From NCBI RefSeq assembly GCF_056746865.1, contig NZ_CM163382.1: a DNA stretch of 64,000 nt; one strand, written 5' to 3'. A program made the position numbers and the translations under genes. The notes beneath the pieces were generated by a model. It was not told the DNA's origin. It saw only the letters and a list, made by a program, of their open reading frames with translations, and did no database searches. Within the stretch, counting starts at the first letter, position 1. Each line of letters starts with the position of its first letter. Shown here piece after piece: positions 2,424 through 20,300 of this stretch.

Positions 2424-5075
2424 TTAGCGACAGATTGCTGTCTGCTGGTTCAGTAAGGTACCAGGAGAAACTTCAGGAAGCTTGTACTCGACAATACAGT
2501 TTGAGTTTTTATCTTTGCCCCATGAAACCTGTAATTTCCCTGACTGTGGAAGTCCAGTCAGATAAACCTGACCGTTTTCCGCGACAATGCTGCCATTTTT
2601 ATTCTTTCCGTGAGTGACAATTGCACCGAATGGAACGCTCTTATTACCGTACTTCAACGTCATTAATACTTTCCCGCCGATTTGTGCATTAAATGTTGCT
2701 CTGGCAATAGCACCGTGAGTTGGGATGACAGTGACCACGGTTTCATCCAGTTCAACATTATCTGCAAGGGAATTCGCGTTAAGAGCGACACGATTTTCTC
2801 TATATTCTGTCGCAAATGGTAATATGGCATAGCCACGCCAGTCGGTATGAATACCGGTCTGGTTCTCTATTTTGACATTATCAGCGCCAGGAGCCTTAAC
2901 CAGAACCATTGTGTCGCCCAGCGGCTGTCCAAAGGTGATGCCATCAGCATGAGCAATAATGCCACCACTCATTCCGTAATAAATCTGGCTGCTGTCACCA
3001 CTCCGACTGTAACCGACATTCGTATTACCGTAAGCTCCACGATAATTAAGAGAACTGTAACCACTGGTGCCAGACGATGTATTACCCCCGTGGGTGTTAC
3101 CGACCTGAACACTATAATTCAGGTTATTATCCGGCAGCAGAGTGCCATAAACTCCCGATAGATTGGTCATGCCGCCTTTCAAATCGTTTGACATACTGTA
3201 ACTGGCGTTTGAATTACGAAATGCCGACTGACTGTCTGTACGCATCCAATGACTGAAGGGAACATTAAGCGTAAAAGCAAGTAAATGATCCCGATCGTTT
3301 TGCCATATATTATTGGAATAGCTGTAATTCAGCGAAGTCGTAATATCACCAAACGGCACATTTAATCCAAATGATATTTGCTGGTCGCTGCGTGACGTGT
3401 TCCAGTAACTTTGGCGACTGGCACTAAAAAATGTCGTACCGTAATTTCCAAGCTGCTGAGAGATGCTTATTTGTTCCTGACCACGCTTACTGTAGAACAG
3501 ATTAAAATAATCAATAAATTGTGTCTGCTCGTTGCTGTCTCCGGTAGGAGGCTTGACGGTGTAACCACTCATTCGACTGTAGGCACTGTCGGATAAGTTA
3601 TAAAAACCTTGCGTAGAATAGCGATATCCTGCGACCTGGATATTGGTTCCCGTCTGGTAGAAGGATTTGCTGTAGACGGATTTAATCGATTGCCCGCTGT
3701 GACGGGTGCCATCTGCAAGTGTCGTATTGGCCTGCGTGATATCGAAAGAAAAGGCACCAAAAAGTCCTAAATCTTTACCAATACCAAGGTTGAAGGCCTG
3801 ATAATCTTCTGCAATTTGCATTCCGCCATAAGGTGTCCAGTTTCCTTCCAGTCCATGCATCAAGCTACCTTGTATGAACTTGGGGGAGCTTTGCAGGTTA
3901 TTTCCACTACGATATTCCCCCATGGCAAGCGCATAACGCGTATATCCAGCACGTTGGAGAACCGGAACAGACGAATAAGGAACATATAATGTCTGAATAC
4001 TGCCGTCTGCCTCTTTTATGGTTACTTGCAGATCACCACCATTGGCCGCAGAGTTGATATCATCAATAGTAAAAGGGCCGGGTGGGACAGTAGTCTGATA
4101 AACATCGTATCCATTCTGTTTTACACTCACTTGTGCGGTGCCGCGGGCAATACCATGAATCACCGGAGCGAAACCATGTTGGCTATCGGGCAACATCGCT
4201 TCTGTTGAATTTATTTTGAGGCCACGAAAGTTCACACTATCAAAAATATCGCCATCGGTATAACTATCACCTACCGTTAAGCGTGAGCGTAAGGGAATAA
4301 TGTCACGTTCAGCCGACGTATTGATATGCTGCCATTTATTGCTGTCAGATGAATTGCTACTCCCACTGTTATAACTCCACGTTGAGTTATCGCGCAGTCG
4401 CCAACTACCAATGTTGATGCCACTCTGTAAATTCAAATATGCATAGTTGGATTTTCCTGCATTATGGTTACTACGATTATTAATAGAATTACCATTAAAA
4501 CTATAGTTTAGAAGCCCAGCATTTATTCCTTCTTCCCACAGATCAGGAGAAACATAGCCGCGAGCCATTCTGCCAACATAAATTTGCGGAACGGAGAGTG
4601 ACAGATGTTGCTGACCAACATCAAACTCAGTTGATGCGTCGGCCAAACGATCCTGAAGTGGTGTGCATGCGCTGTTGTCCGGCACATGTTTTTCTGCCGA
4701 ATGTTCTTTATTGTCTAATAACGCTGATTTTTTTATGCCAAGACTGACTAGAAGATCTGTACTCAGGCATGGGATGAGATCTGCGTTATTATCATCTGCA
4801 ATAAAAGTAATATCCCGACTAGTAATAAATTCGTCGTTCAAATAAATGTCGACCCGATATGTACCAGGTGGTGCCTCGCGTCCCTTAGTAAAGGCGGATA
4901 AATCGACAGATTCAGCAAGATCATTGCTTAAAAACCGTGGATTAAAATAATACTCTGCGTCAACGGGAAATACCGCAGTTGCTAAGCCAAGGGCAATGGT
5001 AAGCCGTGCAAAGCGAGGCAGTAGTAACACCTGATGCATACGATATGCCTTAAATGCGGCACGAAAGGCTGTCAT
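2424..5075 (-). CDS. ydeT: fimbrial outer-membrane usher (FimD/PapC family), apparently full length
   Basis: 883-aa ORF, Asn/Ser/Tyr/Gly-rich beta-barrel composition and usher length; follows chaperone gene; true start may be internal Met 13. Confidence 0.85.
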   Translation of the reverse strand: MTAFRAAFKAYRMHQVLLLPRFARLTIALGLATAVFPVDAEYYFNPRFLSNDLAESVDLSAFTKGREAPPGTYRVDIYLNDEFITSRDITFIADDNNADLIPCLSTDLLVSLGIKKSALLDNKEHSAEKHVPDNSACTPLQDRLADASTEFDVGQQHLSLSVPQIYVGRMARGYVSPDLWEEGINAGLLNYSFNGNSINNRSNHNAGKSNYAYLNLQSGINIGSWRLRDNSTWSYNSGSSNSSDSNKWQHINTSAERDIIPLRSRLTVGDSYTDGDIFDSVNFRGLKINSTEAMLPDSQHGFAPVIHGIARGTAQVSVKQNGYDVYQTTVPPGPFTIDDINSAANGGDLQVTIKEADGSIQTLYVPYSSVPVLQRAGYTRYALAMGEYRSGNNLQSSPKFIQGSLMHGLEGNWTPYGGMQIAEDYQAFNLGIGKDLGLFGAFSFDITQANTTLADGTRHSGQSIKSVYSKSFYQTGTNIQVAGYRYSTQGFYNLSDSAYSRMSGYTVKPPTGDSNEQTQFIDYFNLFYSKRGQEQISISQQLGNYGTTFFSASRQSYWNTSRSDQQISFGLNVPFGDITTSLNYSYSNNIWQNDRDHLLAFTLNVPFSHWMRTDSQSAFRNSNASYSMSNDLKGGMTNLSGVYGTLLPDNNLNYSVQVGNTHGGNTSSGTSGYSSLNYRGAYGNTNVGYSRSGDSSQIYYGMSGGIIAHADGITFGQPLGDTMVLVKAPGADNVKIENQTGIHTDWRGYAILPFATEYRENRVALNANSLADNVELDETVVTVIPTHGAIARATFNAQIGGKVLMTLKYGNKSVPFGAIVTHGKNKNGSIVAENGQVYLTGLPQSGKLQVSWGKDKNSNCIVEYKLPEVSPGTLLNQQTAICR

Positions 5076-6753: not shown

Positions 6754-7186
6754 AATTCTCCAAAATTTATATTTAAGTAGCTTAATAAAGAAAGTTAACA
6801 ATCAAGTCATTCTGTTATTGCTTATAAAACAAGAATCATTCTTGATGGGATATTGCCCTGAGAATATAGTTTCCAGGGTTATTACATTTCACGAAGAACG
6901 ATAATATCTTTAAATTACAAGGACACCTAATCACAACAAGTTTATTGCAGCACTTGTTGTAGAGAGTATTTGCAAAGACATTTTATGTCGCTAAATAACA
7001 TTACGATTTCATTATGCATGTTATTTATAAACAGCGACTAAACAGAATATTATTGCGAACAAGGGAAGTGTCAGGAAAGGTCAAGAGTTACTAATGGTTT
7101 ATATGGCTAAAAATCATTAGCTATGGTTAATGTTTGCTTTCTGAAACTAACGCCAAATTGCTCTAACCAGATAAATGCAGGGTTTA

Positions 7187-7441
7187 TTAAAGCTGATCGA
7201 CAGACTTTCTTAACCTGGCAATATCTCTCTTAGGTGACTCTCCAAACATCCGCGAATATTCCCGACTGAAATGGGATAAGCTTTCGTAACCGACAGCATA
7301 GGCTGCAGTGGTGACATCGTAATGTTCATTCAGCATCAGTCGCCTGGCTTCATTGAGGCGTAGCCATTTCTGATACCGGAGTGGACTCATTCCCGCAAGC
7401 TGTCTGAAGTGTTGATGGAAAGAGGGTGTGTTCATTTGCAC
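7187..7441 (-). pseudogene. yneL: C-terminal fragment of AraC-family transcriptional regulator (HTH only)
   Basis: 84-aa ORF carrying only the second AraC HTH (…YESLSHFSREYSRMFGESP…); no in-frame N-terminal domain upstream. Confidence 0.6.
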
Positions 7442-7721
7442 GCGGTTTGCCAGCCTGACTCTTCAACGCAGGGAAGATGCGGCAAACGGCAAACCTGCAT
7501 ACCAGCCAGCCTATATCCGGTATGCACAGGCCAATCATGAAAGAGGAGAGGCTTTATGTTCTGGAACCCTGAAGTAATAACGACGACCGTAAAATCGCTT
7601 CGCATCACTCAAATTCCATTTAACTATTCTGGGTTTGAGGGATATACATAATTGACTTCAGCACCAGAAACAGCATAACAAACTGTTTTAAATGGATATT
7701 AATCAAATGACGATTCAAACT

Positions 7722-7756
7722 CACAGTTATGAACTCAGTTTTGGTTCATAACTGTG
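7722..7756. repeat. perfect 13-bp inverted repeat CACAGTTATGAAC / GTTCATAACTGTG with 9-nt spacer
   Basis: Read directly from sequence; a related palindrome GTTCATGAAC-TGTT occurs at 7797-7810. Confidence 0.6.
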
Positions 7757-7855
7757 TTAAACGCTGTCCATAAATCACTCGATGTCACGTCTGTTGGTTC
7801 ATGAACTGTTCGTTCTAATGTTGTGATGTGCGTCAGGTTTTGGTGTTCAGTAATA

Positions 7856-8659
7856 TTACGTTTTACTCGATGAGCGATTGATTAATACCTCTCCGACAAC
7901 AGGAGCAGCGGTAAATGCGTTTGGCCAGCCAGCGTAAAACGCGGCTTGGGTAACGATCTCCCCAGCTTCCTCAGCAGAAAGTCCATTATCCATCGCTCTG
8001 TTAAGGTGATAGCCAATCTGCGCGCTCTGTCCAGATGCGATTAACGCGCTGACCGTAATCAGGCTTCTATCACGGGGGGTTAGCGCGGGTCTTTGCCAGA
8101 GATCCAGGAACAGTGGGTCAGCAGTAAATTTAACCAAGCCTGGAGATATTCGGCCAACATTTTTTTCCACTGTCTCTGAACGCTGCTTTTCTGCTTCCTG
8201 ATTGAGAGGAAGCAGGTCCGGAGAAGCGTCAGGAAGCGCATCTGGCGTGACGCCACGAGTTTCAAATACTGCTTTGGTCACGCTGACGGCTGACATTGCA
8301 TTTGGCCAACCTGAGTAGAACGCCAGATGGGTAATGATTTCTGATAATTCCGCTGGCGTCACGCCGCTATCGAGAGCGACGTCAATATAGTGCTTAAGCT
8401 CGGCAGGCTGGTTGCGGGCAATCAGCATGGCGACGGTCACCACACTACGATCCCTCGGTGAGAGGGCGTCGCGTGTCCACAGATCTTCAGTAATAGCTTC
8501 GCGACCAAAGCGCGCGAGAGCCGGTGAGACGGAACGAATATCAGCTTCCGAAATCGCTGACGGTTCTATTTTCATCATAGCTTTACCTCTTGTTTCCTCA
8601 GCATTGGCAAAATCAGAAATAACAAGCGACATAGCCGCTGCTGCAAGTACGCTTTTCAT
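7856..8659 (-). CDS. secreted tandem carboxymuconolactone-decarboxylase (CMD / AhpD-like) family protein
   Basis: 267-aa ORF with signal peptide; two repeats each carrying the CMD-type motif (ITHLAFYSGWPNA and VTQAAFYAGWPNA). Confidence 0.65.
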   Translation of the reverse strand: MKSVLAAAAMSLVISDFANAEETRGKAMMKIEPSAISEADIRSVSPALARFGREAITEDLWTRDALSPRDRSVVTVAMLIARNQPAELKHYIDVALDSGVTPAELSEIITHLAFYSGWPNAMSAVSVTKAVFETRGVTPDALPDASPDLLPLNQEAEKQRSETVEKNVGRISPGLVKFTADPLFLDLWQRPALTPRDRSLITVSALIASGQSAQIGYHLNRAMDNGLSAEEAGEIVTQAAFYAGWPNAFTAAPVVGEVLINRSSSKT

Positions 8660-8674
8660 GTTAATCCTTACTGG

Positions 8675-9400
8675 TCAACGTTGCGGCTCCTGTTTGATTC
8701 CGCCTTTGTTACGAAGAAATACCGGTTTTACCGGGATTGCGTCCTTCCTGGCGCTCATATGCGCCGTTTGCCTGAGGTAATCCAGGAAGTGCAGCGTTTG
8801 TCGGTGCAGTTGATAATCCTCCTCACTGGCGTAAATCTCATAGAAATACCAGCGTTTTGGAGTCTCTGAATCTGTACCGGCATACATGGCTAACACGCCT
8901 TTCTCTACTTTGAGCGACTCGACCATTTCAGGAAGGACGATGTTTCTAAATTCGCTCTGAAATTCAGGCTTTACTTCGACGATCACCAGATTATTGATAG
9001 TTCGTTCATTCGGTATGATGTGTTTGTCGCCCAGAAACTGTGGCTCCAGGGTAATTTTCTTCTTACTGTCAATAATGTCAGGTGCACGAGCAGCGAATGC
9101 TTTGTATGGGGCGGCATTGAGATGTTTGCGATAAGCACGCTCATTTTCATAGAGTTCGAACATGAATGCCTGACCTGAATTGTCGCTGCGTTGCAGGGCA
9201 TACATCGCCAGTGTACCTGCTTCATGATCAACCGAAGCGGAAATCGTCTGTCTGGCCACGTCTGCAAAGTCGTTGTCCCGATCGGGTCTGATGCCGAGCT
9301 CGAAGATATTCATCTCCGGCTTATTCGGCGCGTCCGGTTTTGTTGCAAAGACAGGGCTGCTTATTAGCATGCAAATTAAAAGCATAAAAGTCTTTTTCAC
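8675..9400 (-). CDS. secreted protein with two ABM (antibiotic-biosynthesis-monooxygenase-like) domains
   Basis: 241-aa ORF with signal peptide (MKKTFMLLICMLISSPVFA); two ~100-aa repeats with ABM-like pattern (AMYALQRSD…FMFELYENE / AMYAGTDSE…YFYEIYASE). Confidence 0.5.
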   Translation of the reverse strand: MKKTFMLLICMLISSPVFATKPDAPNKPEMNIFELGIRPDRDNDFADVARQTISASVDHEAGTLAMYALQRSDNSGQAFMFELYENERAYRKHLNAAPYKAFAARAPDIIDSKKKITLEPQFLGDKHIIPNERTINNLVIVEVKPEFQSEFRNIVLPEMVESLKVEKGVLAMYAGTDSETPKRWYFYEIYASEEDYQLHRQTLHFLDYLRQTAHMSARKDAIPVKPVFLRNKGGIKQEPQR

Positions 9401-9515
9401 GATGATCTTTTTACTGACATTACTGTTTAAGACGTTCGATCAACTGGTGCTGGTAAGAACGTAACCGACCGCTACTGGCGCTCTCAAAGACGAGAGGAGG
9501 AAAAGTGAATAAGGG

Positions 9516-10535
9516 CTATCGCATCCAGACCTGCTTAACATCTTTCGTTTGCGGCGTATTTTGCGCCATGATCCCCGTCAGAACATGCGGCTGGTAGGTT
9601 TCTTCCAGAAACTGAATTTCCTCCGGACTTAGTTGAAGATTTACTGCGTTTACCGCGCCATCGACATGAGCTTTTTTTGTAGCCCCTACGACAGGTGATG
9701 TGACTTTTGTCAGCAGCCAAGCGAGAGATATTTCCGTCATTGACACCAGATGGCGTTCGGCCAGTTCGGCTACACGCTCAATAATGCTGCGATCCTGTTC
9801 AGCCGTGCTGTCATATTTTCCACGCGCATAGTCATCCTCTGTGGCTCGCCGTGTATAGCCTTCTTTACGAGAGAGGCGGCCGCTGGCCAGCGCGCTATAG
9901 GGGGTCATTGCGATATTATCCTCAGTGCACAGGCCGAAGAGCTCCCGTTCATCTTCGCGCATAATTAGATTGTAGTGGCTCTGTACGGAAACAAAGGGCG
10001 TCAGCCCTTCGCGTTCAGCAAGGGCGTTCGCCTTCGCCAGCTGCCAGGCATAGCAGTTTGAAATACCAACAGCTCGTACTTTGCCAGCAGTAACAGCGGT
10101 ATGTAACGCTTCAAGCACGTCGATAATGGGCGTGTTGTAATCCCAGATGTGGTAGATGTAGAGGTCGATATAGTCCATCCCCAGATTCTTCAGGCTCTGG
10201 TCAAGGGATTGAGCGATTGCCTCTTTTCCGCTGATCCCTCCGGCAATTTGTGCGGGGGTTCGCGGCAGAAACTTGGTGGCCAGGACGATATCATCGCGTT
10301 TCGCCATCTCCCGTAATGCCCGGCCAACGTATCGCTCACTGGAGCCATTCTGGTAGGCTATAGCGGTATCGTAAAAGTTGATGCCCTTTTCAAGGCCATA
10401 GCGAATGATGTCGCGGCTTGCTGTTTCGTCCAGCGTCCAGCTATGCTGACCCGTCGACGGATCGCCAAACCCCATGCATCCCATGCAGATGCGGGAAACA
10501 AGTAAGTCACTTTTACCGAGCCGGGTATACTGCAT
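9516..10535 (-). CDS. aldo-keto reductase family oxidoreductase
   Basis: 339-aa ORF; N-terminus MQYTRLGKSDLLVSRICMGCMGFG and overall pattern typical of AKRs (Tas/YajO-like). Confidence 0.8.
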   Translation of the reverse strand: MQYTRLGKSDLLVSRICMGCMGFGDPSTGQHSWTLDETASRDIIRYGLEKGINFYDTAIAYQNGSSERYVGRALREMAKRDDIVLATKFLPRTPAQIAGGISGKEAIAQSLDQSLKNLGMDYIDLYIYHIWDYNTPIIDVLEALHTAVTAGKVRAVGISNCYAWQLAKANALAEREGLTPFVSVQSHYNLIMREDERELFGLCTEDNIAMTPYSALASGRLSRKEGYTRRATEDDYARGKYDSTAEQDRSIIERVAELAERHLVSMTEISLAWLLTKVTSPVVGATKKAHVDGAVNAVNLQLSPEEIQFLEETYQPHVLTGIMAQNTPQTKDVKQVWMR

Positions 10536-10537
10536 TG

Positions 10538-11110
10538 TTATTCTCCCTCTGGATTATTCACGACGGAATTGAGCAGTTCGACAAGCCTTGAAGCGTGTTC
10601 CCGGGCAAGCGTTTTTTGCTGCGCGATTTTGTCGGCATCCCGGTCGGCATAGCTGATACCGCAGGTATAAACCGGCGCCAGCAGCTCAAGATTGCACAGC
10701 CTTGCCGTGGTTTCGAACGGAATAAGATACTCTTCAATGGTATGGCCAAAGAAACTGTCGACGGTATAGAGCTCCTCTGGCGCTCCCGTTGTAAAGGAGA
10801 GGATCAGCTTTTTACCGCCCAGTTTCGCCGTTGAGCCATGCGCGAAGCCGTGAACAAAGACCTCGTCCAGCCATTTTTTCATTAATCCTGGCAGCCCATA
10901 CCAGGAAAAAGGGAACTGCCAGACAATCACATCGGCCCTGAGCAGGCTTTCCTGCTCCGCCGCGATGTTGAATTTGCCATCCGGATAGAGCCTGTCCAGA
11001 CGACGAATCTCAACATCAGGAAGGGCGGTCTCCACTTCATCAAGAATAGTGGCATTGGCGACGGAATGGGTAAGCTCAGGATGACCTGAAATAACAAGGA
11101 TATTTTTCAT
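10538..11110 (-). CDS. flavodoxin-like NAD(P)H:quinone oxidoreductase family protein
   Basis: 190-aa ORF beginning MKNILVISGHP…, resembles Flavodoxin_2 / KefG / MdaB-type quinone reductases; 2-bp gap to upstream AKR gene. Confidence 0.65.
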   Translation of the reverse strand: MKNILVISGHPELTHSVANATILDEVETALPDVEIRRLDRLYPDGKFNIAAEQESLLRADVIVWQFPFSWYGLPGLMKKWLDEVFVHGFAHGSTAKLGGKKLILSFTTGAPEELYTVDSFFGHTIEEYLIPFETTARLCNLELLAPVYTCGISYADRDADKIAQQKTLAREHASRLVELLNSVVNNPEGE

Positions 11111-11260
11111 TTCAATCAGTTAAACATCTTTGGTGAATATTAAATCCAGTATAGAGTGACAACATTATTTTTTTAGAGCAGTAAAGGCTCATTCACTTTT
11201 AGGCAAAAACTAATAATTGTCGGCTGATCACAATGTGCTCAGTCATCATGAAACGGTGAA

Positions 11261-11938
11261 CTAAACCGTGATGCCCAGTAAACGTTCTGCATTGCGAAAC
11301 GCGATGGCCTCTTTTTCAGCCTTGTTGACGGGCAGACTGTCTATAAAGGTTTTTACACCGTCCAGGGTCTGATAGGGATAATCGACGGAGAACAGGATCC
11401 TTTCAGCACCCATTAACGCGTAGATAAACTGGAAGTGCGGCAGTGTTAGCATATGACGGGGTAACGTAAACGTGTTCCTGGAAGGTTCTCGTTAGCGTGC
11501 GTGACAGACCCGTTGCAGCCAGTGGCAGGCTGTCATCAAGACGCTGGAGCCAGAAGGGTAACATCTCACCCCAGTGGCCACTGATTACCTGCAAGTGGGG
11601 ATATTTATCAAATGCACCCGATAACATCAGCCGCAACAAATGGATCCCCGCTTCGTGATGCCAGCCCCAGGCAAACATAGAAAGCCTGGAGTTGACCTCT
11701 GCGCTGAAGCCCGTGAAGTAGGCCTGCTGTACGCTTTTAAGCGGTAACCCGGGATGAAGATAGAGTGGCACATTCAGTTTATTAAAGCGGGAAAGCAGGG
11801 AGTCGGTCAGGATTATGACCATCAGCGACGGTTTTCCCCCAGTCGCCAAGGAAAGGTGCCTGCTCAAGCGCAACAGGCATACACGCTCGCCCTAACTCGC
11901 TGTCGAGATAATTTTCTTCGAGGCAAATGATTTTCATA
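11261..11938 (-). pseudogene. amidohydrolase-family gene disrupted by at least two frameshifts
   Basis: Three consecutive reading frames carry pieces: MKIICLEENYL… (from ATG 11938), then …ISGHWGEMLPFWLQRLDDS…, then …FSVDYPYQTLDG…; metal-dependent amidohydrolase-like motifs but no single intact frame. Confidence 0.5.
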
Positions 11939-12039
11939 TTCTCACCATTCATACAAAGCAGTAAAAGTGATACAGATTAGAATCACCCGGAACAGCCCGT
12001 TCGTGTGTGTCATTCATGACAGTCTGTTCCGGACGGGCT

Positions 12040-12987
12040 TTACACCATCGGTTTTTCCCAGGCGCCTCGTGTATCCACTCTGGTCTCTGCGGCGAGTTGT
12101 TCCAGCAGGATGATTTCCTCATCGCGTAACTGGATGTCTGAAGCGCAGGCGGCGTCCAGAACGTGATGGACTTTAGTCGCACCAACGAGGGGAAGGGTAC
12201 CTTTCGCAATAGCCCATGCGATGGCTATCTGTGCCACGCTGGCATTCCTTTCGGCTCCCATTTTTTTCATGGCGGCGGTTAGTCTTTCTATCTGCGGCAG
12301 TACTGCGTTATAACTTTCGGCCCGGCCACTCCCGGCAGGCATGGGATGATTTGAATCATAACGACCACTGAGCGCGCCTTGCTCCAGGACCATGTAAGCA
12401 AAGAACGTGATGTTATTTTGTCGGCAATAATCAAGGATCCCGGCCTCTTCAGAAGCGCGATAGAGCAGGCTGTAGTGATTTTGTACTGCACTGAGGGAAT
12501 AACCGGAAGCGTTAAGGATTTCATTGGCGCGTCTGATTTGTGCCAGATTGTGGTTGGAAACACCTACGCGTTTTACCTTACCGCTTTGTAAAAGTGGGAT
12601 CAGTCCTGGTGTCCATTTTTCGACGTCGAGGGGATTATGGATCCAGTAGATATCAATCGCGTCCACGCCCAGGCGCCCAAGGCTGGCCTCAAGCATATCG
12701 CTGACAGGCTGCGCAGACTGCTTGTCCGCAATCTGCGGCGTGAATTTGGTGGATAAAATTATGTTCTCGCGGGGAAACTGACGGACTAATGCTCCCAGCG
12801 CAGTCTCGGAACTCCCCATACCATATACTGCTGCGGTATCCCAGAGATTGAGGCCCTTACTCATGGCCGCAGTGAACACTTCTGCCATCTGAGTATCAGA
12901 AAGATGATTACCAAAGACGGTGTCGCCGCCGGCAAAGCCTGTGCCCCAGGACCATGTACCTAGTGCGACTGGAGGTAGTGTTTTCAT
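12040..12987 (-). CDS. aldo-keto reductase family oxidoreductase (second copy)
   Basis: 315-aa ORF with AKR-like N-terminus and overall pattern. Confidence 0.75.
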   Translation of the reverse strand: MKTLPPVALGTWSWGTGFAGGDTVFGNHLSDTQMAEVFTAAMSKGLNLWDTAAVYGMGSSETALGALVRQFPRENIILSTKFTPQIADKQSAQPVSDMLEASLGRLGVDAIDIYWIHNPLDVEKWTPGLIPLLQSGKVKRVGVSNHNLAQIRRANEILNASGYSLSAVQNHYSLLYRASEEAGILDYCRQNNITFFAYMVLEQGALSGRYDSNHPMPAGSGRAESYNAVLPQIERLTAAMKKMGAERNASVAQIAIAWAIAKGTLPLVGATKVHHVLDAACASDIQLRDEEIILLEQLAAETRVDTRGAWEKPMV

Positions 12988-13060
12988 ATTCAGCTCCTGA
13001 AAAAAGGCCGGATCGTGGCTGACTTAAACCGGCCAAGTAAGGTGAGTAACGATGAATTAA

Positions 13061-13762
13061 TTAAGCTGTCCGGCGGAGTGCATTTAACAGCGCCACACCA
13101 ACCCCATGTGCTGAAGCGGGATTCTGCCCCGTGATAAGGCGATCGTCGGTAACCACGTTTTCAGACCAGTTTGGAGCTTCATGATAAAGCGCACCATGCT
13201 CGCGAAGTGCGGTTTCAAGCAGGAAGGGAACCACATCTGTTGTGTGAACTTCTTCCTCTTCCTTGTTGGTAAAGGCCGCCACATTTTTCCCTTTTATCAG
13301 GTATTCGCCGCTACTGAGTTTTGCGTCAACCAATGCCGCAGGCCCGTGGCAGACGGCTGAGACAATCCCATCACTTTCATACACTTCGCGGATAATACGC
13401 TGGGCATCCTGATTATCACGGAAATCCCACATGGTCCCATGACCACCTGCAAAGAAAACTGCGCTGTAATCGGCACCTTTCAGCTCGGATAACGCAGGTG
13501 TTGTTGCCAGGCGCTGCTGAAAATCGGTTTCGTTCCAGTACCAGGCGTTAACAGGGTCGCTGAGGTCAAATCCATCCACCGGTGGCTGCCCCCCGCGAAT
13601 ACTGGCTATTGTTGTTTTTATTCCGGCATCTTCCAGTACTTTCAGCGGATGAGTCAGCTCGGCCAGGAAAAAACCGGTTGGTACACCGGATGCGCCTTTA
13701 ATCGGATGGCTGGAAACGACACATAGCACTGGTTTATATGCAGGTTTCATATCGGTCCTCAC
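13061..13762 (-). CDS. DJ-1/PfpI (class I glutamine-amidotransferase-like) family protein
   Basis: 233-aa ORF with nucleophile-elbow-like motif AVCHGP; GAGG RBS before ATG 13762; start overlaps upstream gene stop by 4 bp (ATGA). Confidence 0.65.
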   Translation of the reverse strand: MRTDMKPAYKPVLCVVSSHPIKGASGVPTGFFLAELTHPLKVLEDAGIKTTIASIRGGQPPVDGFDLSDPVNAWYWNETDFQQRLATTPALSELKGADYSAVFFAGGHGTMWDFRDNQDAQRIIREVYESDGIVSAVCHGPAALVDAKLSSGEYLIKGKNVAAFTNKEEEEVHTTDVVPFLLETALREHGALYHEAPNWSENVVTDDRLITGQNPASAHGVGVALLNALRRTA

Positions 13763-14070
13763 TCTTTATTTTTAAATTCATCGGCGAAGAGATTTTCCCA
13801 GTTAATAAAGGAGCCAAGCGGTATACACTCGAAGCTTAGTAAGCCTGCTTTTGCCAACGGGAATTCGGCCATAACGTTCATCGCTTCATCGACAGAGTCA
13901 CATTCAAGAAAAATAGCGACGCCAGGTCTGTCCTGACGGAAGTAGATGTCGCGGATGAAGCCTGATTTATACAATCCCCAGGCGTGCAGCGCTTCAGCGT
14001 TGAGGTGCGGAGCATATTTCTCCAGCGATGCTCCAGGGGCAGGGATATCCAGACATAAAATTCGCATCAT
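13759..14070 (-). CDS. small muconolactone-isomerase-like protein
   Basis: 103-aa ORF; resemblance to muconolactone isomerase pattern is weak and by eye only; first gene of the co-oriented cluster. Confidence 0.35.
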   Translation of the reverse strand: MMRILCLDIPAPGASLEKYAPHLNAEALHAWGLYKSGFIRDIYFRQDRPGVAIFLECDSVDEAMNVMAEFPLAKAGLLSFECIPLGSFINWENLFADEFKNKE

Positions 14071-14206
14071 AGTCTCCTGAACTCAGGTCGTAGTAGAAAG
14101 AGACTAAAGTATAAGAGGCGTATTTCAGGAAGATTAGAGGGTCATTGACTTAAGCATTTTTAGACTGTACTTAATAATCAGGCGAGAATTGCTTTAGGAA
14201 AACATT

Positions 14207-15106
14207 ATGAATAACGCTCTTTATAACCAGATTCGCATCTTCCAGAGCATTGCGCGGGAGGGCAATATTTCGGCAGCCGCAAGGAAACTGGAAATTACGC
14301 CTCCCTCCGTCAGCAATGCACTAAAGCTGCTGGAAGAGTATATCGGTCATCCGCTTTTTGTGCGTACGACCCGCCGTATAGAGCTGACGGAAACCGGTCA
14401 ATTATTGCTGGAACAGACCGCTGCGGCGGTGGAGTCGCTGGAAAACTCACTTGAAAGCATTCGCGACCAGCATCAGGAGCCCTCAGGGATGGTGCGAATT
14501 ACGCTCTCGCGTTTTGCCTACCTGTTAATTCTTAAGCCTGCGATGGCAGAATTCTGTCAGCAATATCCGGGTATACAGTTAGAAATTTCGGTCTACGACG
14601 GTACCGTGAATATCATCAAAGAGCGTTTTGATCTGGGGATCCGTTTTGGCGATATTCTTGAGGGAGGGGTGGTGGCCCGACCGTTAATGAAACCGTTTCG
14701 TGAAGGATTATATGCATCCTCAGCGTATCTCTCCCGACATGGAACGCCTGAAGTGCCGGCAGATCTCTGTCATCACCAGCTGATTGGTTACCGTTTTATC
14801 ACCAACAACCGCATCCTTCCGCTGCTCCTGAACGATCGCGGTGAGCAGTTGACCGTTGAGATGCCGGGGCAGTTAATCAGCAACGATATTGACGTTATGG
14901 CAGACGGGATCCGTAACGGGCTGGGAATTGGGCGCTTGTTTGAGCCTGTCTGGCAGTTACAGCCGGACAGGGAGCGCTTTATTCCGGTGATGGAGAGCTA
15001 CTGGAAAACCTACCCGCCAGTGTATCTCTATTACCCCAAAAACGCGGGTAAAACGAAAAGAGTGAAGGCCCTGATTGATTTTCTGATATCCACTACGGGG
15101 CGATAA
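14207..15106 (+). CDS. LysR-family transcriptional regulator, divergent from the cluster
   Basis: 299-aa ORF with N-terminal HTH (…ISAAARKLEITPPSVSNALKLLEEYIGHPLFVRTTRRIELTETG…) and LysR substrate-binding-domain length. Confidence 0.85.
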   Translation: MNNALYNQIRIFQSIAREGNISAAARKLEITPPSVSNALKLLEEYIGHPLFVRTTRRIELTETGQLLLEQTAAAVESLENSLESIRDQHQEPSGMVRITLSRFAYLLILKPAMAEFCQQYPGIQLEISVYDGTVNIIKERFDLGIRFGDILEGGVVARPLMKPFREGLYASSAYLSRHGTPEVPADLCHHQLIGYRFITNNRILPLLLNDRGEQLTVEMPGQLISNDIDVMADGIRNGLGIGRLFEPVWQLQPDRERFIPVMESYWKTYPPVYLYYPKNAGKTKRVKALIDFLISTTGR

Positions 15107-15503
15107 AGACGATAACGCCTCGTTCGGTATGGAGATGCATCGAATGGCATTGTGAGTTTTTTTTCACAGATGGGCGTAATCGTCAGTGGATTTTACATAC
15201 AAGGATAGCGCCCACATACTGACATCATTAATTAACGTTGGGTGAGGTTTACCGGGGGGAGGGGAAAGCGAACCAGGAGATGGAGGTGGCCAATCTGGTA
15301 CGAACCGCCGCGTAGCTTGCACGGCAAAAGCTGCTGACTGATTCATCAGTTAAGCTACTGAAAGAGCGGAACACATGAACTTAAGAACAAACCCACCATA
15401 TTTAACATAATATACATTATGCGCACCAACATAAACCAAGGGAGAATCCAGTCGTTGGCGGTCATGATTGTCCTGCTCATTAACAACGGCCAAACCCCAT
15501 ATC

Positions 15504-16826
15504 TTACTTAATACCGTATTCTCGGCTTAAGCGACGGTGCAACCTCAACACATTGGTTTCAACTGCCGTCACCACGTTCTCCGGAAAATCTGTCGGTAAT
15601 GAAGTCTTCACGTTATCCAGTGCTGCCGGAATCATTCTGGCAAAGTCACTCAGGATTTCATGCATCTGCACTTCCGGAAATTTCAGCACCTTTGCTGTCG
15701 CCAGAAAATGTCGCGGATAAATTTTATCGATTGCCGTTTTTTTGCCTTTGGATGCGTTAAGCCCCATTGCCAGTTTGAGATCGCTGATGTGTATTCCTGC
15801 GCCACCCAATACCGGAAATGCTGAAATGATGTCGTAAAATGGCGTGAGTCGATAACTGCCGCCAGCCTGAATAAATACGGAGAAGTTTTTTGCATGGCCA
15901 TCCGTTGCGCCAATCAACCACTGGAACACCTGAAACTTCATAAAATCATAGCGATCTTTCAGCGCCTCGCTGGACCCCATCAAAAAAGCCATGATCCGCG
16001 CGATGCCTGGGCCTCCATCTGATTCATATTTCACCGATGAAGGTAAACCGAATGTCTGACACATATCCTCCTGTGGCAAGCGAAGTAAAACCGTTCGCTC
16101 AGCATTCCAACGCCTGTCAAAACGTTCGACCGCTAACGCGCGCACATTTCCCGCTTTAATGATTTCTGCGTCCGGCACATTCAACCCAAGTTCTTTCGCC
16201 AGCAGCAGACAGTAATACTCATTATCAACGCTTTGGCTGAGATCGAGCGTCGCATTGGGCTGCCTGATTTCGCCAATCGGTAATTTAATGATGTGCGTCG
16301 TCGGCGTTATTCCTTTCGGAATGCACCAGTCATTGCCTATTCTGAGCAGCGCTGTCTTCTCCTGCGCGCCAGCAACCGAGATGCGAAAGTCATTTTCTTC
16401 TCTAATCATGCCCAGAGGGATATCTGCTTTATAAGCCGTTAATACTTCTTCAAGTCTGGCTTCAGTAAGCTTTTCCCATGCCATTATCGGATGCGTTACG
16501 GTTTCGTCTTCGGGTATTAACGTCACGGCACCAACGCTGTCTCGCCCTATTTCTGACAATAAATCAAACGGTTGTCTGGATTTGGCATGATAACGTTTAA
16601 CGATCCGGTCACGTACAATCGGGCTATCGGGTAACAGGTTATCGAAGAAGTTAAATACGGCATCAGAGGTGATATTCCCCCTCTGCAATGGCAGCGAAAG
16701 TGATAACGGTCTGGCATAACGGTTGGCTAACCACTCCGGTGCATACTTAAAGGTGTGCGCGCCATTGGCTAACTTCGTTAACTCGCCTACCCGCTGGTTG
16801 TTCATCCAAGTGACAAGTTTAGGCAT
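15504..16826 (-). CDS. hipA: HipA serine/threonine kinase toxin of the HipBA toxin-antitoxin module
   Basis: 440 aa from internal start MPKLVTWMNNQRVGEL (ORF track extends 19 codons further upstream); start overlaps hipB stop by 1 nt. Confidence 0.9.
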   Translation of the reverse strand: MPKLVTWMNNQRVGELTKLANGAHTFKYAPEWLANRYARPLSLSLPLQRGNITSDAVFNFFDNLLPDSPIVRDRIVKRYHAKSRQPFDLLSEIGRDSVGAVTLIPEDETVTHPIMAWEKLTEARLEEVLTAYKADIPLGMIREENDFRISVAGAQEKTALLRIGNDWCIPKGITPTTHIIKLPIGEIRQPNATLDLSQSVDNEYYCLLLAKELGLNVPDAEIIKAGNVRALAVERFDRRWNAERTVLLRLPQEDMCQTFGLPSSVKYESDGGPGIARIMAFLMGSSEALKDRYDFMKFQVFQWLIGATDGHAKNFSVFIQAGGSYRLTPFYDIISAFPVLGGAGIHISDLKLAMGLNASKGKKTAIDKIYPRHFLATAKVLKFPEVQMHEILSDFARMIPAALDNVKTSLPTDFPENVVTAVETNVLRLHRRLSREYGIK

Positions 16827-17092
16827 TACCACTCCAGATCTTGCTGTTCTGTTGATTCTGGCGAGGCATTTTTCGTGTCGCATAGCGTCATTGAGAGTTC
16901 AAGCGACTGTAAAATCTTAAAAAATGTCGTCAGCGTGGTATTGTCAGGATTGTTTTCGAAATTGGAAATTGTCGCCTGCTTAATACCGATTTTTTTCGCC
17001 AGCTCGCTCTGCGTCCAGCCATTTTGCTGACGAACCAGTTTCATTGCATTCGCTAATTGCGTTGGGCTATAGATCTTCTGAAAGCTCATCAT
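16826..17092 (-). CDS. hipB: HipB antitoxin / Xre-type repressor
   Basis: 88 aa from MMSFQKIYSPTQLANAMKLVRQQNGWTQSELAKKIG…; HTH motif; immediately upstream of hipA. Confidence 0.9.
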   Translation of the reverse strand: MMSFQKIYSPTQLANAMKLVRQQNGWTQSELAKKIGIKQATISNFENNPDNTTLTTFFKILQSLELSMTLCDTKNASPESTEQQDLEW

Positions 17093-17302: not shown

Positions 17303-20300
17303 TTACCAGCTATATTTCACACCCAGCATGCCCTGAGTATCGCTATAGCCTTTATCACCTAGTTGCACACCGACATTCCCCCACAGGCTAAGGTTGTTAT
17401 TTACTTTCGCCTCAACCCCGGTACGTACTTCACCGAGATTACGCGCACCATCACGGCTTACGGTTTGACCATTCATCTTCACGGCGTAGACTTTGCTGTT
17501 GTTGATCCAGTTCGCTTCAATGTAAGGCTGGAACTCACGCTGTTTACCATTGTCACGCTGGTGATGACTGTTCAGGTAGGTTTTCACCCCAAGTCGCGTT
17601 TGCACGTTTCCGTCACCTTCCGTTTCAATGCGTGTTCCGTCCTTCCGGATATGGTCAGAATCTTTCACACCCATCCAGGTGATTTGCACCTGTGGCTGGA
17701 CGTACCAGGTATTCAGCGTCCCTTCGCTGCCGCTAAATGTTCCCGCTTCAAAGGTATACCCACCCTCAACAGAGGCCGTCACACCGCGAGAATCATAGTC
17801 GTCAGCAGAACGGTTATCGGAACTGACGCTGTTATCAAACCAGTTATACAGCGCCCAGCTGTCAACATAAGCGCCGGTCTTATTCGCATCGTTCTGATAC
17901 CAGGTCGCGTAAATCCCAGCGCTGTACCCGCTGATGCGCCCATCCGATTTATAACCCACACGATTACTCTGAGTATTACTGTGCTGATTGGCATAGCCTG
18001 CCATGACGCCGAGATGCCAGCGATCCTGCGCGTTGCTACTCCACTGCGCCAAATCGCCGCCTAGCTGCAATACATAGCGGTTAGCCTGAGTATTTAGCTG
18101 ACCGTCACCGGCCCTTGAACGTTCGTGCCCTCCGACATGACGCATCCACATACTGCTTGCCGAACCCTGAGAATGCAGTGAATCTGTATACTGCGGCTCA
18201 CCCAGACGGTCGTGTAAACGATGGCTAAACAGCGAGTTGGCTGCGGCAATGTTGCTGATATAGCTTCCGGCCTCCGGGCGATAAACTGATGGGCCTTCCG
18301 GATCCACAACAGGAGGATTATTGATGGGATCGGGTGTATCCGCTGGCGTTACGCCGTCCCATTTACTGGTCAGATACCAGTTTTTCTCGTCATTCCCCTT
18401 CCCTTTAGCCAGCGTGTAGACGTAAGCCCCAGCTTCGACAGTTCCGGTGGTCAGCGCGAAGTTACCTGCAGAATTACCGCCGACCTCAATGAGTTCAATA
18501 CCGTTGACAGTTTGTGCACCGACGCCGCCAATGTTATCAACCCGAACGCGAGTATTCCCTTGGGTATCGCCTTTCACGTTCATCTTATCGGTGGGCGAAT
18601 TATCGCCGCCCAGCGTCGCGTTGAACGTCATCAGGCCATTGTTTCCGGTATAGTTACCGTTAACGGTCAGTACATTCCCCGGTTTTCCTCCTTCGCTGTT
18701 CATTTGAACCGTGCCACCATTCTCCAGGTTACCGCCGACAGTGGTTTTAGCGACACGCAGTGTCCCCCCTGGCATAACGTTCACATCACCTGCAGTGGTG
18801 ACATTTCCCGACATCACACCGCTGTTATGGATATTAATGTGTTGACTTGCCATATTAATGGCAGAGTCGGAACCGAAAGCAATTTCACCACCCACGATAT
18901 CCGTCGTACCCTGATACGCCGCGGAATCTTTGTTAAGAGTCAGGATCCCGGTCCCCAGTTTTGTCACATCACCGCTACCGCTGATACTGTGCGTCATCGC
19001 CCAGCTACGCTCAGTGGAGATGGTGAGCAGGCCATTATTGATAACGGAAGCATCACCCAGGTTTTTCTGCTCGTTGACGCTGAGCGCGCTGCCTGTATCA
19101 ATGTTGAATTGCCCCACAAAGCGGCTATTATCGCCATCCAGCTCTACATCTGTCCTGGCGGTTGCGCTCACGATACCCTTCCCGCTTATGCTATTACGCA
19201 GTTCGCCGGTCACATTTTTTAGCGTTAACAGACCGTCATTGGCAATATTTCCTCTGCCTAACCCCTGCGTATTATCGAGGCTGACTTCGGCATTTGGGCT
19301 AATGCTGGTTAACGCATTGTAGCGTGCATTAAGCCCCTCGATAGCCAGTGTTCCCCCTGTAACATTCAGGTTTCCGCCACCTGTCAGTTCGCCCTGACTG
19401 ATCCCACCTTTATTCACCGTCAGCGACCCCTCTTTAAACAAAACAGTCGAACCCATCAGCCCGGTGAATGTCTCTACCGTCTGGGCCGATCCATTAAGAT
19501 CGACGATGGCCGCGTTGCTGATGTTCAGTTCCCGAGTATTGCCCAGCGCGCCATCCGCATCGGTACGTAATGTCCCCATCTGAACGTAGGTTGCCCCCTG
19601 ATAGTCGTTCTGACCGTTAGAAAGCGAAACCTGTCGCACCGTATTGATTGCCAGATCCCCTTCACCACCGATTTTTGCCGACATATCGGCCGTTGCGCCA
19701 TAGGCTCCGCCATGTTCGGCTAACGTCAGCTTTTGCCCACCATGGATGTTCAGCGCTTTCAGCTCATAGTTAACGTACAAACCATCACCTGGTGCGGTCG
19801 TGAGGCGGAATCCATAATCACCCTCGGCGACCACTATTCCGTTTTGTGCAATGTGTAACGTTTTGTCCGCTTCCACCTCGTCGCCCTGTAAATCACGTAA
19901 CGTTAATGAGCCACCCGACCCAATAACCGTTTGCGCCTTCACCAGTTGAACGCCGACATGGCTATCATCGTGTTCCAGCAAATTGAGCGTCGTCAGAGGG
20001 TTATTCGCCATGGGATCATTCCACGGTTTAGGCACGTCGATAAGCACGTCGCCCGTCCCGTTTACCTGATAGTTACGGCCTTTCCAGGTGTAGTCACCCG
20101 CGCCGACAACCAGTGTATCGACGCTGATATATCCCTCCGCAAGCGTCGCAGCAGGTATATCCGTATCGAAAGTGAGCGTACCGCCATTCATGGCTAGTCC
20201 ACCAATGGATTGCTCTCCCACTTTTACCGATGTGGTATTTTCACTGTCAGACTGCAGCATCGCGTGAGTAAGCGCAGCGGTGTTGTCGCGTTCCAGTGCG

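Follow-up and report, generated by a model that had tools for sequence, protein, structure and literature searches.

In Escherichia coli K-12, NAD(P)H quinone reductase MdaB and quinol monooxygenase YgiN have been described as a 'quinone redox cycle' (Adams and Jia, 2005, as cited in PMC8765430, ref. 48), and the LysR-type regulator YhaJ has been tied to the degradation of quinol-like compounds (PMC5031710). Here we analyse a 64,000-nucleotide stretch of E. coli contig NZ_CM163382.1 (RefSeq assembly GCF_056746865.1; hereafter the window), in which eight minus-strand genes (7856-14067) and a divergent plus-strand gene for a LysR-type regulator lie between a yneL remnant and hipA. We conclude that this cluster was acquired by horizontal transfer and is a degraded version of a redox/detoxification module that is widespread yet uncharacterized, a finding that should not greatly surprise a specialist. 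Based on protein families and gene neighbourhood, we put at about 0.5 the probability that it is a LysR-activated operon handling quinone/hydroquinone-type aromatic electrophiles together with the reactive carbonyls that accompany them.

Seven of the eight genes are intact open reading frames (ORFs; P1-P7), and the remaining gene, which encodes an amidohydrolase, is broken and appears as three ORF fragments (Table 1). We ran Pfam on the concatenated proteins and assigned matches by offset. The matches were PF02627 twice, PF03992 twice, PF00248 twice, PF02525, PF01965, PF04909, and HTH_1 with LysR_substrate, bearing out the families assigned by eye in an earlier note on this DNA: two CMD domains, two ABM domains, two aldo-keto reductases, Flavodoxin_2, DJ-1/PfpI, Amidohydro_2 and LysR. 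That note had also described the eight co-oriented genes and the divergent regulator gene as an operon-like unit, and the same gene order is found in Rahnella, Pantoea, Serratia and Pectobacterium and on Enterobacter plasmids, a level of cross-genus synteny well beyond chance. The spacing within the unit had been called tight. This is correct for the 2-bp gap at 10535/10538, but the remaining gaps are 73, 87, 150, 115 and 15 bp, so tight spacing applies to only part of the unit. An 'ATGA overlap' reported between P7 and P6 in fact reads GTGA. The longest P6 ORF extends to a GTG at 13762; the better start, and probably the correct one, is the RefSeq ATG at 13750, which lies behind a GAGGA-N5 Shine-Dalgarno sequence and leaves an 8-bp gap. 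For P7, whose ORF extends to 14070, conservation points to the second ATG, at 14067, as the start. In most of the genes, codon changes relative to the Rahnella and Pantoea orthologs are two to four times more often synonymous than nonsynonymous.

Table 1. Features of the yneL-hipA island, in window coordinates.
Feature	Position	Strand	Evidence or remark
Left direct repeat ATTTAAC, island boundary	7618-7624	none	One copy in K-12/DH10B, where 7624 joins 15400
P1, putatively secreted tandem CMD protein, PcaC-like, no cysteine	7856-8659	minus	PF02627 twice; 4g9q, E = 2e-73
P2, putatively secreted tandem ABM protein (RefSeq 'putative quinol monooxygenase')	8675-9400	minus	PF03992 twice; 3mcs, 3f44
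Deletion scar, ~950 bp lost, junction near 9502	9401-9515	none	Window 9502 joins Rahnella locus 14940 to 15893
P3, aldo-keto reductase, catalytic residues present	9516-10535	minus	PF00248, E = 1.5e-68
P4, Flavodoxin_2, NAD(P)H-dependent quinone-reductase-like	10538-11110	minus	PF02525, E = 1.2e-38
Amidohydrolase pseudogene, hydroxybenzoate-decarboxylase-like clade of PF04909	11261-11952	minus	tblastn against intact Rahnella ortholog, DNA alignment, Pfam
P5, second aldo-keto reductase, catalytic residues present	12040-12987	minus	PF00248, E = 6e-56
P6, DJ-1/PfpI protein, yeast Hsp31/Glx3 class	13061-13750	minus	PF01965, E = 8.5e-14; CHGP motif
P7, 102-amino-acid product of operon first gene, uncharacterized family, YciI/muconolactone-isomerase fold	13759-14067	minus	
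Divergent regulatory region, 136 bp (putative)	14071-14206		Conserved in 13 Enterobacterales loci
LysR-type transcriptional regulator, divergent from operon	14207-15106	plus	HTH_1 and LysR_substrate
Right direct repeat ATTTAAC	15400-15406	none	K-12/DH10B comparison

DNA comparison with K-12/DH10B places the unit in an insert of ~7.8 kb (about 7625-15399). In K-12/DH10B the cluster is missing and the two flanks abut directly, leaving ~310 bp between the yneL remnant and hipA rather than the 'about 1 kb' given in the earlier note. The heptamer ATTTAAC, present once in K-12, occurs at each end of the island; such a pair could have arisen by target-site duplication or reflect a deletion mediated by microhomology. 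Among 5,426 complete E. coli genomes, 478 (about 9%) carry the island, with at least 99% identity in 475 of the 478; the carriers span human, dog, poultry, pig, cattle, wild-bird and water isolates. The cluster is thus accessory, as had been supposed, and is not a K-12 core operon. Over this region the window matches E. coli strain 118UI at 100% identity, and in that strain RefSeq lists the same genes under purely generic names.

Across its coding part (15094-7853), the island shares 90-92% nucleotide identity with Rahnella rivi and 91.8% with 213-kb Enterobacter mori plasmids. This is too high for vertical descent between genera, indicating from DNA comparison that the island was horizontally transferred; a plasmid is a plausible vehicle. 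The GC content is 0.47-0.53, which is not atypical, so the GC profile proposed earlier as a check gave nothing unusual. The non-coding ends (7625-7855 and 15107-15399) have no match in any related locus and are therefore uninformative on origin. We found no integrase gene in the island, no tRNA within the window and no Rfam element in the region. With a 7-bp repeat as the sole such feature, a classical integrase/tRNA-linked island, a phage and a defence element were each rejected.

Sequence comparison with the loci of other genera further indicates decay: Rahnella, Pantoea and E. mori plasmids such as NZ_CP119171 carry an intact operon of 10 genes, and the E. coli cluster derives from such an operon in degraded form. 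This degradation had been missed in the earlier note: relative to the intact operon, the E. coli copy is short of two genes and a working amidohydrolase. The amidohydrolase had been described as frameshifted, and both the frameshift (at about 11454-11476, near residue 285) and the PF04909 match are real. Two further lesions had gone unseen, namely a 354-bp internal deletion that removes residues 51-168 of the intact 349-amino-acid ortholog (junction about 11803/11804), and a His-to-Asn substitution at 11911-11913 that changes the N-terminal metal-binding motif from EEH to EEN. The Amidohydro_2 match of the reconstructed gene is confined to model positions 127-289. An intact ORF of ~330-350 codons with an E-x-H motif, as in ACMSD-type or hydroxybenzoate decarboxylases, is present in Rahnella and not in the E. 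coli copy. A second deletion, of ~950 bp between P3 and P2, removed one DUF1330 gene and one second Flavodoxin_2 gene, both with signal-peptide-like N-termini; these genes are present in Rahnella (14965-15975 of the locus) and on the E. mori plasmid (7529-8548 of the locus). Both deletions are common to all E. coli copies. We searched E. coli for an intact amidohydrolase and found none, with coverage of the Rahnella segment at 66% or less in all 486 matching genomes. Hence, every E. coli copy has the same lesions, consistent with one acquisition that was already damaged or was damaged early. The other E. coli genes look intact, with the catalytic motifs of P3, P5 and P6 preserved. As a separate observation, the putatively exported flavodoxin-fold 'NAD(P)H oxidoreductase' of Rahnella and E. 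mori is odd, since the periplasm has neither NAD(P)H nor an obvious flavin-loading route.

The product of the first gene, P7, matches no Pfam family at threshold. Against PF03795 (YCII), E. coli P7 scored E = 0.34, and 17 of 23 relatives matched at E ≤ 0.1 and 1 of 23 at E ≤ 0.001; against PF02426 (MIase), E. coli P7 gave no match, and the corresponding counts for relatives were 9 and 1 of 23. Membership of the Pfam MIase family was therefore rejected at threshold, the agreement being in fold only. P7 is predicted to adopt a ferredoxin-like beta-alpha-beta-beta-alpha-beta fold superposable on muconolactone isomerase (MLI), ClcF, YciI and TftG; its fold relatives are ClcF (5-chloromuconolactone isomerase/dehalogenase), TftG (5-chloro-2-hydroxyhydroquinone dehydrochlorinase), the YciI protein HI0828, and PA1349. 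In a search with the P7 family profile, TftG was the only match of YciI/MLI type (E = 0.055). The earlier description of P7 as muconolactone-isomerase-like is thus right as to fold, but PF02426 is unmatched and the protein is slightly nearer to YciI/TftG. We conclude that P7 represents a separate family inside the YciI/MLI fold group. Homologs 60-70% identical to P7 occur across Alpha-, Beta- and Gammaproteobacteria, myxobacteria and Acidobacteria, with 27 invariant alignment columns that include C6, D8, K35, R40, Y43, R45, D47, R48, E56, W91 and E92. A full-library profile search returned 1,362 family representatives at E ≤ 1e-3 (representatives at 50% identity). Some family members of 203-309 amino acids match the profile twice and look like tandem-duplicated or fused forms. 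Two database records look like E. coli contamination: a 1,136-bp contig from a 'Collinsella sp.' metagenome-assembled genome (JAIJJM010000909.1), which is 100% identical to the E. coli LysR/P7 region, and a 'hypothetical protein' of the fungus Astraeus odoratus, which is 98% identical to P7.

We used the P7 profile to fetch 80 loci from different species, clustered their ORFs, counted partners over the 77 proteobacterial loci, and confirmed additional families with Pfam. A LysR gene accompanies P7 in 65 of the 77 loci, an Hsp31-class DJ-1 gene lies just downstream in 55-59, and an amidohydrolase gene is present in 43-46. A flavin quinone reductase is encoded in the neighbourhood in 55 loci and directly beside P7 in 40 (WrbA-like in 35, Flavodoxin_2 in 5). 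In several Burkholderia, Xanthomonas and Dyella loci, the entire unit consists of a LysR gene divergent from a WrbA-like gene followed by P7. Other recurrent partners are tandem CMD proteins (28 loci), Zn-dependent alcohol dehydrogenases (25), secreted single-ABM proteins (19), secreted DUF1330 proteins (13), dienelactone-hydrolase-like alpha/beta hydrolases (11), aldo-keto reductases and short-chain dehydrogenases/reductases. Among the 77 loci, no ring-cleavage, downstream catabolic or transporter genes occur as conserved partners. In the window, the candidate flavin reductase is P4, whose relatives in the Protein Data Bank (PDB) are KefF, GSP14, MdaB and NQO1; its score against the KefF model (149.5 bits) is under the cutoff of 210.

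The regulator is nearest to YafC among NCBIfam models, with a score of 163 bits that is under the cutoff of 470. Orthologs 85-94% identical to it occupy the same position in Enterobacterales loci. Outside Enterobacterales, the LysR proteins are 25-33% identical to the E. coli regulator and not all are orthologous, but the divergent arrangement is kept. The region between regulator and operon contains two candidate half-sites of the form TTAAGT(A/C)A, TTAAGTACA (14174-14166) and TTAAGTCAA (14153-14145), 21 bp apart, as well as a conserved box, CTAATCTTCC (14137-14128), and a -10-like hexamer, TATACT (14113-14108), upstream of P7. The domains, the arrangement and the conserved repeated site are those expected of a LysR regulator with a divergent target operon, and cross-species conservation suggests that the operon promoter lies in this region.

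Both tandem-domain proteins are putatively secreted, as the earlier note had proposed. The GTG start of P2 at 9400 yields MKKTFMLLICMLISSPVFA|TK, which is conserved in orthologs; the RefSeq start is at 9370. The N-terminal hydrophobic cores of P1 and P2 have Kyte-Doolittle values of 2.6 and 2.55, and are followed by AXA-type cleavage sites (ANA|EE and VFA|TK, respectively). Orthologs retain these signal-like N-termini, and single-ABM and DUF1330 proteins from distant loci likewise have them. The two signal-peptide-bearing tandem-domain proteins had been called unusual, but for both architectures there are already solved structures: 4g9q is a tandem CMD protein, and 3mcs and 3f44 are tandem ABM proteins. 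Likewise, 'AhpD-like' is not an apt description of P1, which is better described as PcaC-like. P1 has no cysteine anywhere, and hence no CxxC motif, so an identity as an AhpD-type CxxC peroxidase was rejected. Its score against the PcaC equivalog TIGR02425, 116.4 bits, is under the curated cutoff of 155.7.

Taken together, the protein families and their neighbourhood would fit the following scheme, in keeping with the earlier suggestion that the family mix points to quinones or reactive carbonyls. LysR would bind the conserved TTAAGT-N15-TTAAGT element and, with a quinone or phenolic inducer, activate the divergent promoter. In the cytoplasm, P4 would carry out two-electron reduction of quinones; P7, by analogy with TftG and ClcF, might catalyse tautomerisation, isomerisation or elimination on a hydroxy- or otherwise substituted hydroquinone or a lactone; and P6, with P3 and P5, would clear reactive carbonyl products. 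In the periplasm, the tandem ABM protein P2, which is YgiN-like, and the PcaC-like P1 would act on the same class of compound. The operon would thus have a cytoplasmic arm (P4, P7, P6, P3 and P5) and a periplasmic arm (P2 and P1). With the amidohydrolase dead and the DUF1330 and second Flavodoxin_2 genes deleted, E. coli would have at most a reduced form of the ancestral pathway. Genes for ring-cleavage dioxygenases, transporters and CoA handling are all missing from the island, and their absence speaks for detoxification rather than catabolism. A beta-ketoadipate or other complete aromatic catabolic pathway was rejected, since the island lacks a dioxygenase, cycloisomerase, enol-lactonase, transferase, thiolase and transporter, and the PcaC and PcaDC models score below cutoff. 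In line with the earlier note, we found no described pathway of this composition: literature searches covering the yneL-hipA island, this set of genes and the P7 family, with PMC11511026 as a candidate paper, yielded nothing on the cluster.

Several observations weigh against this scheme. The families are broad, and non-quinone substrates would suit every one of them as well. No island protein scores above an NCBIfam equivalog cutoff; all scores are far below, so a substrate cannot be assigned. The amidohydrolase, a core component in 43-46 of the 77 loci, is dead in every E. coli copy, and the E. coli cluster may therefore be functionless. Scanning the divergent region for a sigma-70 consensus revealed no promoter; such a miss is probably common for activator-dependent promoters. 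The signal-peptide calls rest on hydrophobic core, cleavage motif and conservation rather than on a dedicated predictor. Lastly, for P2 the nonsynonymous/synonymous codon changes are 34/27 and 41/39 relative to the Rahnella and Pantoea orthologs.

One alternative is that the ancestral operon, with its 10 genes, serves the peripheral catabolism or conversion of a specific plant phenolic acid, with the amidohydrolase decarboxylating a hydroxybenzoate at entry, and that the E. coli copy is a non-functional, decaying remnant. The intact Rahnella amidohydrolase is nearest to 3nur and then to LigW and to gamma-resorcylate, 2,3-dihydroxybenzoate and salicylate decarboxylases, and the intact operon is found mainly in bacteria associated with plants or soil. 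Moreover, the three amidohydrolase lesions and the two-gene deletion are fixed in all E. coli copies, and the P2 substitution ratios look relaxed. However, the conserved partners at the other loci do not include ring-cleavage, downstream catabolic or dedicated transporter genes, and seven E. coli genes are intact, with catalytic motifs, in 444-478 genomes whose strains come from diverse hosts. Klebsiella, Pantoea agglomerans and Phytobacter, moreover, maintain reduced versions that lack the amidohydrolase, indicating that the other genes can stand alone. We regard this alternative as unlikely.

A somewhat less probable alternative is that the operon mainly detoxifies alpha-dicarbonyls and aldehydes such as methylglyoxal and glyoxal, with P6 acting as a glyoxalase III, the aldo-keto reductases reducing the aldehydes, and the quinone-type enzymes being secondary. 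By its PF01965 match and its nucleophile elbow (Cys138-His139, numbered from the GTG at 13762), P6 belongs to the Hsp31/Glx3 class of DJ-1/PfpI proteins. Its PDB relatives are 4p5p, 1u9c, YDR533c and the Glx3 glyoxalase III, the nearest characterized ones being yeast Hsp31/YDR533c and Candida albicans Glx3; its score against the HchA equivalog, 66.6 bits, is under the cutoff of 365. Both aldo-keto reductases retain the Asp/Tyr/Lys/His motifs. In P3, residues D56, Y61, K88 and H129 lie within DTAIAY, ATKF and YHIW, and the nearest solved relatives are 7utf, DepB and IolS; in P5, the motifs are DTAAVY, STKF and WIHNP, and the nearest solved relatives are IolS and MtmW. For both, the best NCBIfam model is the YdjG methylglyoxal reductase, which would favour a dicarbonyl substrate, but the scores of 124 and 117 bits are far under the cutoff of 550. 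Furthermore, a flavin quinone reductase is the most constant partner of P7 across taxa, with minimal units holding just that pair, and a dicarbonyl substrate would leave the ABM, CMD, decarboxylase-like, P7 and periplasmic components unexplained.

Quinone redox cycling yields superoxide, and many NCBI and UniRef records name members of the P7 family 'superoxide dismutase'. That P7 truly is such an enzyme, and the operon a superoxide or oxidative-stress defence unit, is highly improbable and was rejected: Pfam, NCBIfam, PDB sequence and fold searches found no superoxide dismutase domain (Fe/Mn, Cu/Zn or Ni) and no superoxide dismutase among the matches, the literature offered no support that we could find for the name, the E. 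coli protein is 'hypothetical' in RefSeq, and a recent database entry reads 'YciI family protein'. The label is probably a propagated annotation error.

If the operon does handle quinone-type electrophiles, about 9% of sequenced E. coli hold an additional, regulator-controlled defence against them, acquired from plant-associated Enterobacterales; carriers include clinical, animal and environmental isolates, and the operon could influence how well they survive in the gut, on plants or when attacked oxidatively. A broader and more tentative proposal, which we would not yet favour, is that P7 founds an undescribed enzyme family whose members are dedicated to working with flavin quinone reductases. 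The pathway that they share, widespread, under LysR control and divided between cytoplasm and periplasm, would process quinones or hydroquinones, and its secreted ABM, DUF1330, CMD and flavodoxin-like proteins would have no characterized counterpart. The E. coli island would in that case be a trimmed version still protecting some lineages against dietary or host-derived quinones. Nothing known is overturned, and with the E. coli copy partly broken its direct importance is modest. The wider value lies outside E. coli, in a conserved uncharacterized module and a sizeable small-protein family mislabelled as superoxide dismutase. The most useful lead is the pairing of P7 with WrbA-like or Flavodoxin_2 reductases, a genetic handle toward its substrate.

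We also noted features at the ends of the island and in its surroundings. Past the last gene, by ~100 nt, sequence reading and RNAfold indicate a hairpin with a 13-bp stem (7722-7756, minus strand) that is a possible weak terminator; a consensus terminator scan did not call it. Nearby is a perfect 10-bp palindrome, GTTCATGAAC (7796-7805), and palindrome or hairpin could be a terminator or a protein-binding site. The ~230 bp surrounding them have no match in related loci. The left flank (6932-7624, the yneL remnant side) is only 84% identical to K-12/DH10B, and the right flank (15400-16000, the hipA side) 95% identical. For core DNA of this species both figures are low, which suggests that the flanks may have been exchanged along with the island. 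In strain RIVM_C037134, a frameshifted ISNCY transposase gene and a SIR2-family gene lie just outside the right repeat (window ~15425-15432; 9898-12473 of the strain's locus), beside hipA, so the yneL-hipA interval looks like a repeated insertion site. The hipA ORF (15504-16883) is open for 459 codons from an upstream ATG; RefSeq gives 440 amino acids (1,323 nt). Further away, a fimbrial usher (883 amino acids, 2424-5075) and an ECSE_1600-family autotransporter (1806 amino acids, 17303-22723) are intact here and are pseudogenes or fragments in DH10B.

Among comparable systems, the intact operon of R. rivi, Pantoea spp. and E. mori plasmids agrees with the island in gene content, gene order and divergent LysR gene; it retains a 344-349-amino-acid amidohydrolase together with putatively secreted DUF1330 and Flavodoxin_2 proteins, all lost from E. 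coli. The structural-genomics entries 4g9q, 3mcs and 3f44, to which no function has been assigned, share the two-domain architecture of P1 (E value in Table 1) and P2 (E = 2e-26); compared to 3mcs, P2 has an additional N-terminus of ~22 residues, the putative signal peptide. TftG and ClcF/muconolactone isomerase share P7's fold, but are only 14-20% identical to P7, which has its own set of invariant residues, and no chloroaromatic pathway genes lie near P7. YhaJ is a LysR-type protein, as is the island regulator; it is linked to quinol-like aromatics, controls oxidoreductase-type genes and offers a precedent by analogy. It differs in being a conserved core gene with a dispersed regulon, whereas the island regulator is accessory and divergent from a single operon. 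The P4/P2 pair parallels MdaB/YgiN, which, as far as the citing article describes it, combines a Flavodoxin_2-fold quinone reductase with an ABM-fold quinol monooxygenase. In contrast to that pair, the island ABM protein is a tandem fusion with a putative signal peptide, such that the partners would occupy different compartments, and the pair appears embedded in an 8-10-gene LysR-controlled operon.

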